Source: an uncultured virus (IMG/VR IMGVR_UViG_3300048576_000363)
Lineage: Duplodnaviria > Heunggongvirae > Uroviricota > Caudoviricetes
Virus record (IMG/VR): IMGVR_UViG_3300048576_000363
Coordinates: 110,640 to 130,639 of that record
Reading direction: 5' to 3' (one strand)
DNA: 20,000 nucleotides
The notes beneath the pieces were generated by a model. The model saw nothing but the letters and a program-made list of their open reading frames with translations, searched no databases and had not been told where the DNA came from. A program made the translations under genes and the position numbers. Shown here piece by piece: positions 1,872-20,000 of this stretch (position 1 is the stretch's first letter; every line of letters begins with the position of its first letter).

Positions 1872-4800
1872 TCAACCGCATCCTGAATAGTCAGCGCAAT
1901 CAATGCACTTGAAACATCCAGCCTGCATTACTACTCTACCACCACATTGCGGACATTTTAAACCTTTTAATTCAATACCATCACTTAATGTTTGTGATAA
2001 AAACTTTCTAACTGCTGTTAATAATGTAGAAATATTATCTCCATCAATTCCCATAAGAGAAACAAGAATATCTTCTCTTGGAATATTATGTCGCAAACAC
2101 AACGATATCATTCTACCAAGTCTGTTGTGAGGATAGTCAATATTTGCTTTACCAACTGTCTCTTTTACAATTTCATCAGAGACACCACAAGATAAAGCAA
2201 GTTTAGTTAAATTACGAGATGCTTTGTTACAAACTTTAAGTTCTTCGCCACCATATTGAGAATTCGTATAAATCCAGATACAAATAGGAAATTCTTTACG
2301 AGAATCTTCAGGCAAATAAGAGAAATGCAAATAAAACTTCTTGCCTTCTCTCTTAATTATATGAGTATCACCATTTATAAAAACATCAGGAAGTTTAATA
2401 TCTTTTGCAATAATTTCTCGTTTTTCAGCTTTACCTATGTCTGATAAAACAGATTCCATAGAGCCTTCTCTATAAGTAGTAAAACCATTAAGGCCTAACT
2501 TCCAAGCTTTCAAATAAAGCTGTTTAAAATCTTCAAACGGATATTCATTTGGAAGGTTTGCTGTTTTACTAGTACTTTGATTATTATAAAACTGAACTAC
2601 AGCTTGAATTGCAAGATGGTCATCAATATTCAAATCTTTAGTAGTAATTAAATATTTAGAATGATCTTGTTCTGGAAAATTATCAAGTAACCATTGGTAA
2701 CCATAATCTCTAACAATATTTATTTTACACAAACCTCGGTTATGAGGTTCATAGTAATATTCATAGTCACCAAATCTCCCTCTCCAATATTCATAATCTT
2801 TTTCTTTATAATGTTTAAGAATTTGTTTAACATTATCTTGACTCAAATCTTCTGGCCATGTTTGACAAACAACTTTCCTCTCATACTCGATTAAATAAAC
2901 AGGCTCAATCCCGTTACTTGTAACATCAGATAAAATAGAACTATTACCAAGAGGTGGTACTGTTGTTGTTTTTGCATTTCTTGCACCATATTTTTTTAAC
3001 AATTCGCGTGTTTCATCTGTTATTCTAGAAGAATTAAAAAATTCTGTTGCTTCAAATTGTTCTTTTATATATGCTCCAAAAACACCCTTTTCTTTTGCAA
3101 GTAATGCTGATGTTTGCCAAGTAAGGTTTTCTTTCAATTGACAGATTTTTTTTGCAAATTCTACAGCTTCTTTACTGTTGTAAGGGATTCTTAACATCAT
3201 CAACGCTGAACCAAGTCCATTAATACCCATACCTATTTGACGTAGATTGTCTATAACCCATTGATAACTTGGAAGTGGTGCATAAGTCAAATCATTAACG
3301 TTGTCTAACATTCTTGTAAAAATTCTAATATCTTCAATATACTCGTCAAAATCAAAATAAGTAGTTCCATCAGTTTTAATTCTGACATATTGTGTTAAAT
3401 TCAAAGAACCAAGGAGACAAACAGTCCCTATACTTGCAATACCAGGAACTTCCCCACAATTATTAACACATATTCCACTACTTCTTAAGAATTTATCGTC
3501 ATTCCAAGAAGTAAGAACGATATAATTGTGATTGTCATCAACGGTTATATTGTAAACGTCTTCGTAACCATGAAACTCTACTTTCTTGACTTTATGATTG
3601 AAAAATGCTTCTGTTTCAAGTAAATTAGAAAATTCAGTATAATTGCTACAATTAAATTCTTTTTGTCTAAATTTTTGCGGATATGGTAAGTTATTTGATT
3701 TACAAAATCCAAATAATTCTTGTCTTTTAGGTTTTCTTCCTATGCTTCTAGTAAAACCTACAAAATGCGATAAAAGCTCTTTTGATGTTATTTCATATGC
3801 TCTACCATTTTTTAAGCCTGATGTAGCTTTACTCATATTTTCACGATATTTCTGCTTATCTCGTAATCTATACATAGGATTGTTTTTACCAGATATATCG
3901 TGAAAACTTTGATGTTCTTGCTTTGTACACTTGACAAGGAACTCAGGTCTATCATCTAAAGAATTAAAATTACTATGATGAATTCTATCGTCTTTAGTTA
4001 TCTCTATATCTGGATTAAAAAATTCAAATATTAATCTGTATTGTCTTCTACTTAATCTTAAACCATTTGAGCGTTTTTTGTTTGAAGTATAAGAAATTTG
4101 ACGATAACCATTACTTTCATGTGAATTAAAAGGAAGAAGACTTTCTCCTGGTTTTAAGTTTTTTAACTCGACATCACCCTTATATCTTGTAGGTATTTTA
4201 TGGTCGGGTGTTGCAATAAAAACTGAATCATCATCGAGTGTAAGCTTCCAAACTTCTCTTTGTTCACCAGTAATTCTTGGGTTTCTACCCATCTTAATTT
4301 CAACTTTATCTGTGAGTTTATTTCTTGAATAAACTGGTAAATCTTTTCCTTCTTGCGCCAATTGCTTGATTGACACGCCATTTCTGCCATCAGCTGTAGC
4401 AATAATTGAACTACCTATTATGCAAGGGTTTGTCGCTGTTACTCGACCAAGATAAGCAATAGGATTGTTCCTCATCATATTGTCAGCAAATAAAACACCA
4501 GGTTCAGCTCTATCATAACACGATAGCATTATCAAGTCGTAAAGTTCTCTTGCTTTTATTCTCTTGAAAACTTTTCCATTAAAACTTTGTTCAAAAAAAT
4601 CATCATTCTCTACAGCTTTCAAGAAATCATCAGTTAAAACAACAGAAATATTGAATTTTGTAAGTTCACCAGAAGTTTGTTTTGCTCTAACAAATTCTTC
4701 ACAGTCAGGATGTGTAACGCTTAAAGCAGCAAGCATTGCTCCTTTTCGTATTGCATTTTTTATAACTGTTTTTGCTTCTTGAAATTTATCGTCGCCTAAA

Positions 4801-5387
4801 TAATTTTTGATTTTATCTACATAACCATCAGCATCACCTTGAACAATACATTGCGAAACGGCATCCCATATTTTCATATAAGCAACAACGCCAGGGTGCT
4901 TGATACCAGTTCCTTTTATAATAGAACTTCGAGGCCTAATAAAATCAAAACTTAATCCGTAACCACCTTCTGATGCAAGTGTTTTTGCTTGCTCTACAAT
5001 AGTCAAAAATATGTTTATTAAATCATCAGGGGTATCATCAGTTTCATATTCAATTGGAAACTTGATTAAGCCATTGTCAGTTTCACGCTTGTATGAGACT
5101 TTAGCATTACTAATGGGAGCAGCAACAAAACAATTTAACAATGTTGCTTTCTCGAAAATTGTACCTACGTTAGCAGTTATTCTACCACCAGTTGTACATT
5201 TAAGACCTACAGGTTCGTTTTCAATAGTACGAACTAAAGTGTTAAAAAACTTATCTACCCAATCTTCAGGTTTTTTTTCAACAGAAGCAAGTGCTTGAGC
5301 AACTCTAAAAAAAGTTTCTTTAGGTGTTTCATTGTTATATCTGTATTTTGATGTCCAGATTTCTCTAGCAAGTTCAGTTTTGAACAT
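1872..5387 (-). CDS. nrdJ: class II (adenosylcobalamin-dependent) ribonucleotide reductase precursor containing an intein
   Basis: GGRI, LLNCFV, RKGA, AEPGVLF, split NP/CGE active site, VCLLGSLNL, RQIGMG, PxGNSS, SNGIEP, SKTAN and TYREGS motifs; C-terminal CxxC..GCxxCxxC..SGCG Zn ribbon typical of NrdJ; no nrdB nearby. ATG at 5387 with AAGGA RBS is preferred over the TTG at 5420. Confidence 0.9.
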   Translation of the reverse strand: MFKTELAREIWTSKYRYNNETPKETFFRVAQALASVEKKPEDWVDKFFNTLVRTIENEPVGLKCTTGGRITANVGTIFEKATLLNCFVAAPISNAKVSYKRETDNGLIKFPIEYETDDTPDDLINIFLTIVEQAKTLASEGGYGLSFDFIRPRSSIIKGTGIKHPGVVAYMKIWDAVSQCIVQGDADGYVDKIKNYLGDDKFQEAKTVIKNAIRKGAMLAALSVTHPDCEEFVRAKQTSGELTKFNISVVLTDDFLKAVENDDFFEQSFNGKVFKRIKARELYDLIMLSCYDRAEPGVLFADNMMRNNPIAYLGRVTATNPCIIGSSIIATADGRNGVSIKQLAQEGKDLPVYSRNKLTDKVEIKMGRNPRITGEQREVWKLTLDDDSVFIATPDHKIPTRYKGDVELKNLKPGESLLPFNSHESNGYRQISYTSNKKRSNGLRLSRRQYRLIFEFFNPDIEITKDDRIHHSNFNSLDDRPEFLVKCTKQEHQSFHDISGKNNPMYRLRDKQKYRENMSKATSGLKNGRAYEITSKELLSHFVGFTRSIGRKPKRQELFGFCKSNNLPYPQKFRQKEFNCSNYTEFSNLLETEAFFNHKVKKVEFHGYEDVYNITVDDNHNYIVLTSWNDDKFLRSSGICVNNCGEVPGIASIGTVCLLGSLNLTQYVRIKTDGTTYFDFDEYIEDIRIFTRMLDNVNDLTYAPLPSYQWVIDNLRQIGMGINGLGSALMMLRIPYNSKEAVEFAKKICQLKENLTWQTSALLAKEKGVFGAYIKEQFEATEFFNSSRITDETRELLKKYGARNAKTTTVPPLGNSSILSDVTSNGIEPVYLIEYERKVVCQTWPEDLSQDNVKQILKHYKEKDYEYWRGRFGDYEYYYEPHNRGLCKINIVRDYGYQWLLDNFPEQDHSKYLITTKDLNIDDHLAIQAVVQFYNNQSTSKTANLPNEYPFEDFKQLYLKAWKLGLNGFTTYREGSMESVLSDIGKAEKREIIAKDIKLPDVFINGDTHIIKREGKKFYLHFSYLPEDSRKEFPICIWIYTNSQYGGEELKVCNKASRNLTKLALSCGVSDEIVKETVGKANIDYPHNRLGRMISLCLRHNIPREDILVSLMGIDGDNISTLLTAVRKFLSQTLSDGIELKGLKCPQCGGRVVMQAGCFKCIDCADYSGCG
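3459..4424 (-). mobile_element. intein (322 aa) in the RNR active-site NP/CGE motif, with HNH-like and NUMOD3-like internal region
   Basis: TATNP|CIIGSSIIATADG...ATPDHKI (block B TxxH)...EDVYNITVDDNHNY (block F)...ICVNN|CGEVP. Removing it restores NPCGE. Internal IHHSNFNSLDDRPEFL...HQSFH and SGKNNPMY motifs. Confidence 0.92.
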
Positions 5388-5406
5388 GATTAGTTTTTCC
5401 TTAGCG

Positions 5407-5589
5407 TTAATAGCGTTCAAATTCTTTTATGTGAGTGGAGAGTAATTCCGAAGTAAAAATTAATGCTTGAAGCTCTTTGTTAGTGAACTTAAATCGTTCT
5501 ACTTTTTCATTAGAACCTTCAATGATATTTCCAATATGTTCTAATGCATTAATGAAATCTTGTTTTTTTTCTAAAAGTTTGTCATTCAT
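5407..5589 (-). CDS. hypothetical protein, 60 aa
   Basis: ATGA overlap with the upstream Zn-ribbon ORF; fills the gap before nrdJ. Confidence 0.7.
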   Translation of the reverse strand: MNDKLLEKKQDFINALEHIGNIIEGSNEKVERFKFTNKELQALIFTSELLSTHIKEFERY

Positions 5590-17497: not shown

Positions 17498-17749
17498 TTA
17501 ACGTCTTGGAGAGTTTTCTCTTTCTCTAGCAGGAGTCACAGTGATGCTACGACCATTCATAGAAGTATTATTAGCAGACAATGCACTATCTGAATTAGCC
17601 ATCTCAACAAAACCAAAACCGCGTGATCTTCCAGTGTCTCTGTCTTGAATAATTCTCACTGAAGCAACAGGGCCATACTTCTCAAAAAATGCTTTCAGTT
17701 CGTCTTCAGAAGTTTGAAACGGAAGATTACCTACATAAAGTTTACCCAC
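17498..17749 (-). CDS. single-RRM RNA-binding protein
   Basis: RNP2 LYVGNL and RNP1 RGFGFVEM; DRDTGRSRG; GTG start with GGAGG RBS. Confidence 0.95.
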   Translation of the reverse strand: MGKLYVGNLPFQTSEDELKAFFEKYGPVASVRIIQDRDTGRSRGFGFVEMANSDSALSANNTSMNGRSITVTPARERENSPRR

Positions 17750-17883
17750 AAGAAACCTCCATATAAAAAAATAAAAACTCCAAACAATAGGAGTCGAGTT
17801 TTGTAATTATATATCTGCGCACGTGTTGTTTGATTTTTTTTATTGATGAAGCATACAATAATACTTGTATCGTCTTAAAAAAA

Positions 17884-17957
17884 TACCCTGGGAGAGAATT
17901 GAACTCCCAACAGCAAAATTAGAAATTTTGTACTCTATCCATTTGAGTTACCAGGGC
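17884..17957 (-). tRNA. tRNA-Arg(UCU), CCA not encoded
   Basis: GCCCTGG/CCAGGGT acceptor, ACTC/GAGT D stem, CAAAA-TTTCTAA-TTTTG anticodon arm, GGGAG-TTCAATT-CTCTC T arm. Confidence 0.92.
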
Positions 17958-18005
17958 AAGATATTGAATTATATTATTGTCTCTGCATTATTGTCACAAT
18001 ATGTA

Positions 18006-19055
18006 TCATGTAATTTCTTTGATAACTTTATGCTTATTACTCCACAAACTATTCTGTTTCAAGACTGTAACAATTACTCTTTCATAAACATTACATCTTT
18101 TAGCAAGTTCTTCAATCGAGATAAAATATTTATGAAATTCTTTAATTATTTTATTTATTATTTGTTTGTTTCTTATTTTTGAACATGCTAAAGTGTGTCT
18201 TTTAAATGTCGATTCATTATGTAAAACTTTTCCACAAACACAAGTCTTTCTAGTTATACATTCGTTTGGAAAATGCTTATTAAAAAATCTCTTGACAAAA
18301 TGTTTTGTTTTCTTCCATTTTTTTGATAGTTTTAAACTAATATTATCGCTACCTAAAAATAAACTTGCATCATTTAAGTATTTGTCTAATTTACTCTTAA
18401 CTTTGCTTTCTTTAAATTTCAATTCTTTTAACTTTTTTTCTTGTTCAACTTTAAGACGTCTACATTGATACAAAGTATAATCTTCAACACAAATTTCAGT
18501 TTGTTTTGTATTAGACAAAATTTTTAAAATTTGTTTTATTCTTGTTTTAGGTGTTTTAATAAAATCTTTCCAAACTATACGTAATACTTTTACACCTTGT
18601 TTATTTATATACAAATCTTTTTTTGTATCGAAATTTTTTCTTTTTTCATGTTGTTTCCCATCAATTTCAACAGCTAGTTTTAATTTAAAAAAATAAAAAT
18701 CAACACGATAAAAACTAAAAGGAAATTCTCTAAAAAAATCTTTATCTTTTTCATAACCATTATTAATTAAAATTTTTTCAAAAAACTCTTCAGCATAAGA
18801 AAATCTATTCCAACCCTTTGATCTTCCTATCATTATCTCAGATTGTGTTCTTTGAATGTCTTTAAGAATTTCATCAAGTTTTGCTTTTGTACACCATTTT
18901 TCTTTGTAAAGTTGTTTTTTTGTTGCTCCCTCAAGATATCTTTTTCTTACTTCATTTATTTTTATTTGCTCAATACAAGCTTTAAAATGTCTAGAATAAC
19001 TTGATATGCGAATTTCTTTACCACATTTTTCACAATTTTTATAATTCATAAGCAT
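18006..19055 (-). CDS. DUF559/Vsr-like putative homing endonuclease with two CCHC-type Zn fingers and a C-terminal HTH
   Basis: SYAEEFF...REFPF.FYRVDF....KLAVEIDGKQH......D.KKD......GVKVLRI.W; CEKC..RHFKAC and CVC..RHTLAC; C-terminal SIEELAKRCNV. Free-standing between tRNA genes. Confidence 0.8.
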   Translation of the reverse strand: MLMNYKNCEKCGKEIRISSYSRHFKACIEQIKINEVRKRYLEGATKKQLYKEKWCTKAKLDEILKDIQRTQSEIMIGRSKGWNRFSYAEEFFEKILINNGYEKDKDFFREFPFSFYRVDFYFFKLKLAVEIDGKQHEKRKNFDTKKDLYINKQGVKVLRIVWKDFIKTPKTRIKQILKILSNTKQTEICVEDYTLYQCRRLKVEQEKKLKELKFKESKVKSKLDKYLNDASLFLGSDNISLKLSKKWKKTKHFVKRFFNKHFPNECITRKTCVCGKVLHNESTFKRHTLACSKIRNKQIINKIIKEFHKYFISIEELAKRCNVYERVIVTVLKQNSLWSNKHKVIKEIT

Positions 19056-19066
19056 CTTATTAAAAA

Positions 19067-19138
19067 TACTCCTGCCAGGAATTGAACCTGAATCTTGCGA
19101 TTCGTAATCGCGTACTTTATCCTTTAAGCTACAGGAGC
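19067..19138 (-). tRNA. tRNA-Arg(ACG), CCA not encoded
   Basis: GCTCCTG/CAGGAGT acceptor, CGCGA-TTACGAA-TCGCA anticodon arm (27-43 mismatch), TCAGG-TTCAATT-CCTGG T arm. Confidence 0.9.
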
Positions 19139-19143
19139 GAAAA

Positions 19144-19215
19144 AGCGGTAGAGCAGATTCGAACTGCTGACATCTTCTTTGGCAAAGAAGGATTCTACCT
19201 CTGAACTACTACCGC
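19144..19215 (-). tRNA. tRNA-Gly(GCC), CCA not encoded
   Basis: GCGGTAG/CTACCGC acceptor, discriminator U, CTTCT-TTGCCAA-AGAAG anticodon arm, AGCAG-TTCGAAT-CTGCT T arm. Confidence 0.93.
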
Positions 19216-19502
19216 ATAACTTGTCGTTTTTCGTTTGCTAATTTATTTACATACAAATCAACTGCATTGTGACCCAAAATTCTTTTTGATTCGAATTCAT
19301 CATAATTTTGATCTGCAACTTCTATTAACCACGGATACGTTTTAATAATTTTCATTAAAATTAACAACTCAGGACTTGGATCTTCAGTACTTAATGAACC
19401 CATTTGAAGATCAAGTGCTCTTTCAACACTCGCTTGTGTATATCCGTAATTTGCATTCAATTCAACTAAAAATTCTTCTATAAATGTCATATAAACTTTC
19501 AT
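19209..19502 (-). CDS. putative XRE/MqsA-like HTH protein
   Basis: GYTQASVERALDL..G.L...PSPELLILMKIIKTYPWL resembles an HTH plus the PS...L+.+...P motif of MqsA/HigA-type C-terminal domains. Start is ATG at 19502 or 19490; TAG stop lies inside tRNA-Gly(GCC). Confidence 0.6.
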   Translation of the reverse strand: MKVYMTFIEEFLVELNANYGYTQASVERALDLQMGSLSTEDPSPELLILMKIIKTYPWLIEVADQNYDEFESKRILGHNAVDLYVNKLANEKRQVMR

Positions 19503-19509
19503 AAAAATA

Positions 19510-19580
19510 AGCAACCGATCAGATTTGAACTGATGACTTCGCTTTGGAAGAGCAAGATGTTTCCACTACAACACGGTTGC
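19510..19580 (-). tRNA. tRNA-Gly(UCC), CCA not encoded
   Basis: GCAACCG/CGGTTGC acceptor, discriminator U, TTGCT-CTTCCAA-AGCGA anticodon arm, ATCAG-TTCAAAT-CTGAT T arm. Confidence 0.88.
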
Positions 19581-20000
19581 AATAATATTCTTTCCAATCT
19601 AAACCTTGATATTTTTTACTTCCTGTTCTTTTTTTAATATATGTTTGTTTATCAATATCAGGGAAGTTTAAACGTAAAAATTTTCTGATACTAGTTCCAG
19701 ATATTCCTAATTTATTTTTTGCTTCTTTAAGCCATCCTCGTTTAGACATATCAATAGTTTTAAGAATTTCTAATTTGTTTTTAATTTCTTCTTGTCTTTT
19801 ATCTTCTTTTTGTTTTTTCTTAAAATTTTCTCGTTTAATTATTTCATCTAACAAGTTTAATGTCTTCAATTGTGTTTTTGTCAACTTATTTATTTCTATT
19901 TCTTGTTCTTTTTCGTTTTTTAAAACTCTTAAAGTTTCTTCTAATATTTGTTTTGTATTATTGAATAACACTTTAAAAGAAATTCTTAACACCTTATAAC
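19519..20000 (-). CDS. C-terminal part of a second DUF559-like putative homing endonuclease (5' end outside the window)
   Basis: The frame is open to the window edge and reads YKVLRISFK, matching VKVLRIVWK of 18006-19055. Lys-rich, with a C-terminal HTH-like IDMSKRGWLKEAKNKLGISGTSIRKFLRLNFP. Confidence 0.65.
   Translation of the reverse strand, partial: YKVLRISFKVLFNNTKQILEETLRVLKNEKEQEIEINKLTKTQLKTLNLLDEIIKRENFKKKQKEDKRQEEIKNKLEILKTIDMSKRGWLKEAKNKLGISGTSIRKFLRLNFPDIDKQTYIKKRTGSKKYQGLDWKEYYCNRVVVETSCSSKAKSSVQI

Follow-up and report, generated by a model that had tools for sequence, protein, structure and literature searches.

Reading frames that end inside tRNA genes of a phage tRNA array: probable by-products of selfish cassettes lodged at tRNA boundaries

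For the homing endonuclease gene segB of phage T4, it was proposed that maturation of tRNA-Arg cuts the transcript between the last codon and the stop, thus impairing expression, and the idea was extended to the nucleases F-TflI and F-TflII of the T5 tRNA region (PMC2330249). The association of segB with tRNAs is widespread across phages and was quantified in 2026 (PMC13096335). In bacteria, Hudson et al. listed 379 same-orientation overlaps between coding sequences (CDS) and t(m)RNA genes in 2031 genomes, affecting about 1 in 15,000 mRNAs, as candidate sources of non-stop mRNA (PMC4131195). In Alphaproteobacteria, selC is nested in selB, and Mukai hypothesised that tRNA folding and processing repress the full-length protein (PMC8124441). 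A family of Vsr-like homing endonucleases was first described by Dassa et al. in 2009 (PMC2677866). The processing-coupled idea for segB (2008) is stated as a hypothesis in the papers cited here. Here we describe two consecutive open reading frames (ORFs) that end inside tRNA genes of a tRNA array in an uncultured virus of the Caudoviricetes. The window analysed is a stretch of 20,000 nt (IMG/VR record IMGVR_UViG_3300048576_000363, positions 110,640 to 130,639), in which ORF A, the homing endonuclease gene called HEG2 below, ends within tRNA-Gly(UCC), and ORF B, a small conserved gene, ends within tRNA-Gly(GCC). We favour a reading where both overlaps are by-products of selfish cassettes that sit at the exact 5' boundaries of tRNAs in a compact array and take their stop codons from the tRNA, and we put its probability at about 70%.

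The window forms the final 20 kb of a record of 130,639 bp, and the contig breaks off inside ORF A, which is listed in the window at 19519..19998 (minus strand) and is open at the contig end. Two further IMG/VR contigs are 100% identical to both ORFs, one of which (210,938 bp) supplies the missing part of the array; its coordinates are given below with the prefix L003. No close relatives were found in IMG/VR beyond these two contigs, which are identical to the window over both ORFs, and a blastn search of public phage genomes in distant mode found no related phage, the sole match being a 74-nt tRNA-Gly. In this large phage (211-kb contig) the array lies on one strand and comprises 11 tRNA genes, 10 called by ARAGORN and one by Rfam only, with five ORFs in the spacers (HEG1, HEG2, HEG3, ORF B and an 85-aa ORF). 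Within the window, all features of interest are on the minus strand. Those directly concerned are:

19519..20000, minus: 3' part of HEG2 (ORF A), a gene for a putative free-standing DUF559/Vsr-like homing endonuclease, truncated where the window and contig stop
19519..19580, minus: overlap of HEG2 with tRNA-Gly(UCC), 62 nt, giving 20 sense codons and TGA from tRNA positions 1-62
19510-19580, minus: tRNA-Gly(UCC), 71 nt (ARAGORN; Rfam, 53.6 bits over the full length of the model)
19209..19490, minus: ORF B, encoding a conserved protein of 93 aa that starts with MTFIEE, with 5 homologues at 68-90% identity
19144-19215, minus: tRNA-Gly(GCC), 72 nt (ARAGORN; Rfam, 63.7 bits)

A preliminary description of the window had reported that ORF A stops in tRNA-Gly(UCC) after reading 62 nt of it, and that ORF B stops at the TAG within GCGGTAG of tRNA-Gly(GCC); both statements are correct in position and in substance (ORF listing, ARAGORN and Rfam). 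ORF A carries the tail ...CNRVVVETSCSSKAKSSVQI and reads ...DWKEYYCNRVVVETSCSSKAKSSVQI to the TGA at 19519-19521, which forms positions 60-62 of the tRNA, in the 3' strand of the T stem. The conserved HEG2 sequence runs to ...DWKEYY, 1 nt upstream of tRNA position +1. The tRNA begins at the second base of the codon following YY, so that the 20 residues of the tail are encoded by tRNA DNA in the same frame.

Comparison with related proteins places the end of the conserved sequence at the same point. HEG2, its paralogue HEG1 and two homologues, P0001 (79% identical to HEG2) and P0002 (about 51-54%), align as far as DWK(E/T)YY; beyond it they differ, their tails being 20, 13, 20 and 7 residues long, respectively. 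At the DNA level, HEG1 and HEG2 cease to be homologous at L003:4422, the fourth base of the tRNA (repeat family D2). Judged by its protein sequence, the P0002 tail, ...YYRGSNSVG, would fit a tRNA that starts 1 nt after YY, with the TAG of the D loop serving as stop. P0001 has kept the read-through end (tail RSRVVVETSCSSKAKTSVQI). The length of the overlap is itself unremarkable once no stop precedes the tRNA, as 10 of 30 frames (the 10 ARAGORN tRNAs of the array in three frames each) run at least 62 nt into the tRNA before a stop is met.

A record from a metagenome assembly that ends inside a gene invites the suspicion of an artefact: the overlap might be feigned by a frameshift from sequencing or assembly, by a wrong tRNA call or by a non-standard genetic code. 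We find this scarcely credible. The four tRNAs of the window score 53.6-63.7 bits against Rfam RF00005 (gathering score 29), match it over the full length and have a cloverleaf and an anticodon, and the boundaries given by ARAGORN, which had been proposed as a check, are the same. The ORF is identical in the two further contigs, and a recent stop loss or assembly frameshift is excluded because the independent homologue P0001 carries the same kind of tail at 79% identity. Nor do the homologues end before the tRNA, a possibility raised earlier: P0001 keeps the tail, and a homologue of ORF B, P0024, keeps the QVMR end. Recoding does not occur, since the phage genes use all three stop codons (TAA 11, TGA 8, TAG 4); an alternative code was thus considered and ruled out, each of the three stops ending well-defined genes of the window. 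HEG2 and tRNA-Gly(UCC) are also contiguous, at about 85% nucleotide identity, in contigs from two other studies, X2 and X7, and one such contig (X7) additionally has ORF B, the next two tRNAs and HEG3. The 1,562-nt X2 contig is probably the one that encodes P0001 (longest for P0001: 1,561 nt) and is therefore not independent evidence.

The complete HEG2 gene encodes 313 aa (L003:3539-4480), and the whole protein matches PF04480 (DUF559) with E=1.5e-13 and 51 bits against a cut-off of 20.6. The label DUF559-like, given when only the window was seen, is thus right for the whole gene, although the 159 residues visible in the window have no Pfam match. Among solved structures, HEG2 has weak sequence similarity to 3hrl, an 'endonuclease-like protein' (E=1.7e-6), and to 3r3p, a 'mobile intron protein' (E=0.045) that is a solved example of the Vsr-like homing endonucleases. 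The array holds three paralogous DUF559 genes, HEG1 (L003:1648-2694; PF04480, 41.4 bits), HEG2, and HEG3 (in the window; PF04480, 49.1 bits; same cut-off), which we read from their sequences as free-standing Vsr-like homing endonuclease genes.

Homing endonuclease genes are known to degenerate after fixation, and the read-through could accordingly be a symptom of pseudogenisation, the stop codon of a decaying HEG2 having been lost without selection. The lack of any relative that HEG2 could invade would suit such a history: no form without HEG2 was found, with no contig bridging it in four metagenome runs or in IMG/VR. However, the frame stays open over its 313 codons, in a region with a G+C content of about 29%, and HEG2 retains all 19 columns that are invariant in an alignment of 8 sequences, including E127, I128, D129, G130, Q132, H133 and D143. 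The invariant residues, among them E127, D129, H133 and D143 of the DUF559 core, would have a catalytic role, and their retention suggests an intact enzyme. The 79%-identical P0001 is likewise intact and ends in the same way, and we consider decay improbable.

Some further observations concern the boundaries of the nuclease genes. A 28-nt stretch is shared at 82% identity between L003:1533-1560 and L003:4912-4939 (window 19060-19087; repeat families D6 and D14). The first copy takes in the 3' end of tRNA-Glu and the spacer before HEG1, the second the 3' end of tRNA-Arg(ACG) and the spacer before HEG3. The stretch may mark a 5' boundary shared by the nuclease cassettes, or else a tract of co-conversion. 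The alignment of one X2 contig skips L003:1371-2847, the HEG1 region. We also considered an arrival of the nuclease together with a spare tRNA that overwrote the resident one. This was rejected, as the first 25 nt of tRNA-Gly(UCC) occur only once in L003 (up to 3 mismatches allowed); nor was a second copy of this tRNA found among 20 of the 39 repeat families of L003.

ORF B overlaps its tRNA by only 7 nt (19215-19209), which contribute the last base of a Met codon, an Arg codon and the TAG at 19209-19211; the stop corresponds to positions 5-7 of tRNA-Gly(GCC), the last three bases of the 5' acceptor strand GCGGTAG. All five homologues begin at MTFIEE (window 19490), the possible upstream starts at 19502 and 19514 not being conserved. 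Their ends vary: some close on QVMR (as in P0024), some on LCSSVE, and others 4-5 residues earlier. A profile search returned 246 relatives at E <= 0.001. ORF B itself has no Pfam or PHROG match, but distant relatives of about 200 aa have matches to MqsA_antitoxin, HTH_3 and Xre-like-HTH, all under the curated Pfam cut-offs. The AlphaFold model is helical (pLDDT 78), and its top Foldseek match is the C-terminal helix-turn-helix (HTH) domain of the antitoxin HigA2, a weak one (E=0.8, probability 0.72). ORF B is thus possibly a stand-alone XRE/MqsA-like HTH domain. The earlier label HTH-like is thus reasonable but unproven.

To place these two cases in a wider context, the homologues of HEG2 on viral contigs were surveyed, using the best 80 of 258 matches to the family (74 loci, L007-L080). 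After exclusion of duplicates of the phage itself (L002-L006) and of ORFs identical in their last 300 nt, 71 unique homologue ORFs were kept, 66 of them in loci with at least three tRNAs within about 3 kb (median 9 tRNAs). Their stop codons are distributed relative to the downstream tRNA as follows:

inside a same-strand tRNA: 14 of 71
0-15 nt upstream of a same-strand tRNA: 19 of 71
16-60 nt upstream of a same-strand tRNA: 3 of 71
61-200 nt upstream of a same-strand tRNA: 9 of 71
more than 200 nt upstream of a same-strand tRNA: 15 of 71
no same-strand tRNA downstream within the locus: 11 of 71

Stops inside or abutting a tRNA thus account for 33 of 71 ORFs, against 12.6% expected under a positional null (interval from -70 to +15 nt). 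That these ORFs end at or in the 5' ends of tRNAs is far above this expectation and is not due to chance. The 14 stops inside tRNAs are mainly at conserved tRNA triplets (positions 8-10 in three cases, positions 19-23 in four), and the longest of the 14 overlaps is that of HEG2, with 62 nt. For replication, metagenome contigs were searched (13 of 64 parts scanned, the best match listed being 30% identical to the query). Among the matches listed there were 72 new ORFs, 42 of them in loci free of tRNAs; of the 30 with tRNAs in the locus, an overlap is seen in 7 and a stop 0-15 nt upstream of a tRNA in another 7.

This behaviour is shared by unrelated genes. Of 189 array ORFs of at least 100 aa that do not match HEG2 (which may include nucleases of different families), 100 have a downstream same-strand tRNA, and among these 16 overlap it and 20 abut it. 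The corresponding values for HEG2-like ORFs with such a tRNA are 14 and 19 of 58. Ending at or in a tRNA is therefore a generic property of ORFs in phage tRNA arrays and is not specific to the nucleases.

The exact position of the stop is also variable. In a group of 14 nucleases that precede tRNA-Asn(GTT), the stops lie at -10, -10, -9, -7, -1, 0, 1, 4, 4, 5, 6, 6, 7 and 11 nt relative to the tRNA. Together with the varying ends of the ORF B homologues, this fits a packing or insertion boundary followed by the first available stop, and not a tuned overlap. In a FastTree phylogeny of the 71 proteins, the downstream tRNA isotype switches 15 times; the minimum in 500 label shuffles was 16, none reaching 15 or fewer. 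The nucleases thus cluster by downstream tRNA isotype, a pattern that shared ancestry alone could produce.

The cassettes fill the inter-tRNA spacers nearly completely, HEG2 beginning 20 nt past the preceding tRNA. Lacking a stop codon of its own, HEG2 would continue through tRNA-Gly(UCC) to the first in-frame stop, the TGA of the T stem, and its 20-residue tail would represent translated tRNA sequence, not a functional domain. The array is probably a single transcription unit. No terminator-like site was found on its coding strand by a consensus scan other than the T arms of the tRNAs themselves, and the 29 promoter-like sites are about as many as chance would give (25.9), which is uninformative. 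Among the sequencing runs listed for this sequence, none is recorded as RNA.

On paper, cleavage by RNase P at position +1 of tRNA-Gly(UCC) would strip 20 codons and the stop from the HEG2 mRNA, and the corresponding cut at tRNA-Gly(GCC) would strip the stop from that of ORF B. The HEG2 mRNA would then be stopless and subject to tmRNA-type rescue, full-length nuclease would come only from the unprocessed precursor, and the level of nuclease would be low. We hold such an expression brake to be plausible, and would class it as a side-effect that is tolerated and perhaps of slight use, not as regulation that has been tuned.

The preliminary description had gone further and proposed a built-in damper on a toxic nuclease and a regulator. 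In its strict form, the stop inside the tRNA would be maintained by selection because RNase P maturation leaves the mRNAs of the nuclease and ORF B stopless and tmRNA then tags the product for destruction, which would hold a potentially toxic nuclease at a very low level. The geometry favours this proposal in so far as the stop is lost for certain if RNase P cuts at +1, and the layout is retained in the 79%-identical P0001. Stops inside tRNAs recur in 14 of 71 viral and, among the matches listed, 7 of 72 metagenomic homologues. A clear Shine-Dalgarno sequence, present in many other genes of the phage, is absent for both HEG2 and ORF B, which is consistent with low expression, and the authors of the SegB study deemed the same mechanism plausible (PMC2330249). 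However, most homologues stop upstream of the tRNA, 19 of the 71 at a distance of 0-15 nt and 27 farther off, and close relatives preceding one tRNA isotype differ in whether they overlap it at all. The ends of the ORF B homologues vary as well, and unrelated array ORFs behave in the same way. We regard selected coupling as unlikely.

Some points weigh against the by-product reading that we prefer. Mobility and the insertion boundary are deduced from the paralogues only, because no relative lacking HEG2 was found. The survey drew on the best-scoring part of the viral matches and was read under the standard code, and the ARAGORN boundaries on which it relies may err by 1-2 nt. Two surveyed loci carry tRNAs with a CTA anticodon ('tRNA-Pyl' in ARAGORN; L010:~6426 and L071:~627), and in these phages TAG may be a sense codon, in which case some of the ORF ends surveyed would be displaced. 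Finally, the retention of the overlap at 79% protein identity could mean selection. Conservation of the tail cannot, however, discriminate between a selected overlap and a by-product, because the tRNA is itself constrained.

Downstream of ORF B, the array continues to its 3' end with the following features:

19067-19138, minus: tRNA-Arg(ACG) (ARAGORN, Rfam)
18006..19055, minus: HEG3, a gene for a putative DUF559 homing endonuclease of 349 aa (PF04480, E=6e-13; alignment with paralogues)
17883-17958, minus: tRNA-Arg(UCU), the last tRNA of the array (ARAGORN, Rfam)
17776-17795 (L003:6204-6223), minus: terminator-like hairpin with T-run, 3' of the array (consensus scan)

HEG3 starts 11 nt past tRNA-Arg(ACG), stops 47 nt short of tRNA-Arg(UCU) and overlaps neither. 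A hairpin matching the one at the 3' end lies 5' of the array, outside the window (L003:1342-1369; consensus scan), and the 85-aa ORF (phrog_4499) ends 9 nt upstream of tRNA-Ala.

At L003:2745-2826, outside the window and flanked by HEG1 and the 85-aa ORF, Rfam alone (35.8 bits, gathering score 29) found a tRNA-like gene of atypical form that ARAGORN missed; this gene has a D arm of only 4 nt, an extra region of 23 nt and the anticodon loop CUUAUAA, so that its anticodon would be UAU, for the Ile codon AUA. Another candidate resembling a tRNA, beneath the 3' end of HEG1 (a 7-bp stem and a T-arm-like hairpin, L003:2662-2738), is not supported, with a fold z-score of -0.78 and no Rfam match up to E=10. 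Calls of 'tRNA-Asn(GTT)' with 84-90 nt and a long variable arm recur in phage tRNA arrays (L003:3429-3518, L019, L024, L025, L031 and L100), often immediately 3' of DUF559 nucleases; the type-II shape is unusual in combination with a GUU anticodon.

The tRNA content also differs between relatives. Both X2 and X7 have 73 letters in place of 230 nt at L003:3155-3386, which comprise tRNA-Ala, tRNA-Asn and part of tRNA-Asp, and one X7 contig has 135 letters in place of 12 nt between tRNA-Gly(UCC) and ORF B (L003:4495-4506). Immediately 3' of the array is a gene for an 83-aa RNA-recognition-motif protein (17498-17749, minus strand; PF00076, E=1.3e-21; no PHROG match). At a greater distance (1872-5420, minus strand), the large subunit of ribonucleotide reductase (1182 aa) contains an intein (PF14890, E=1.7e-9, residues 344-635), a further selfish element of the same phage.

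The arrangement is reminiscent of the tRNA punctuation of mitochondria, where excision of flanking tRNAs also releases the mRNAs, some of them without a complete stop codon, which is then completed by polyadenylation. Bacteria are not known to repair stops in this way, and the outcome there would be a non-stop mRNA. One might generalise that phage tRNA arrays function in a similar way, with lodged selfish genes that have no transcription or termination signals of their own and are both released and limited by tRNA processing, RNase P being an obligatory off-switch, by way of non-stop mRNA and tmRNA, where the stop lies within the tRNA; we hold this to be a doubtful extrapolation. The subset with stops inside tRNAs amounts to about one in five of the DUF559 nucleases surveyed, HEG2 being the most extreme found. 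If the generalisation is true, these nucleases would be made solely from unprocessed precursor, and their dose would be tied to the load on the tRNA-processing machinery of the host during infection.

A possible brake on an upstream CDS through tRNA processing is not a new concept, having been put forward for T4 segB in 2008 and for bacterial CDS-tRNA overlaps in 2014. HEG2 offers a clean test case for it, as the processed and unprocessed products would differ by a detectable tail of 20 residues. The survey shows the DUF559/Vsr-like enzymes to be a second nuclease family tied to phage tRNA arrays, after segB; among the papers listed in a literature search on DUF559 phage endonucleases and tRNA, none concerned tRNA arrays by its title or abstract opening. 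Such associations matter, as homing endonucleases of tRNA clusters reshuffle and amplify tRNA genes, which can act as counter-defence (PMC13096335).

Like HEG2, T4 segB is a free-standing homing endonuclease gene between same-strand tRNAs, with its end adjoining a tRNA, and the target of SegB is a motif in the T arm of tRNA genes. However, SegB has a GIY-YIG fold and HEG2 is DUF559/Vsr-like, and segB, as annotated for T4 in GenBank, ends 5 nt upstream of tRNA-Arg without any overlap, whereas in HEG2 62 nt of the tRNA are translated. F-TflI and F-TflII of T5 belong to the HNH family. They, too, are nuclease ORFs in a phage tRNA cluster for which a reduction of expression by transcript processing was proposed. 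With the family of Dassa et al., HEG1-3 share a Vsr/DUF559-type core with separate DNA-binding modules in free-standing, mostly phage-borne genes (PMC2677866), but that family was described in fractured genes and group I introns, and HEG1-3 reside in a tRNA array.

As in selC-in-selB, a same-strand tRNA is translated as a C-terminal extension (PMC8124441). In that case, however, the whole of a cellular housekeeping tRNA is contained in the ORF of its own elongation factor, whereas HEG2 combines a selfish nuclease with an unrelated tRNA. The same logic applies to the bacterial CDS-tRNA overlaps, where maturation of the same-strand tRNA should likewise leave the upstream mRNA stopless (PMC4131195). 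Those overlaps concern about 1 in 15,000 mRNAs, while the 74 phage loci surveyed here contain 14 nuclease overlaps and 16 others; such overlaps, rare in bacteria, are thus common in the surveyed arrays, which is of consequence for gene callers that forbid them.

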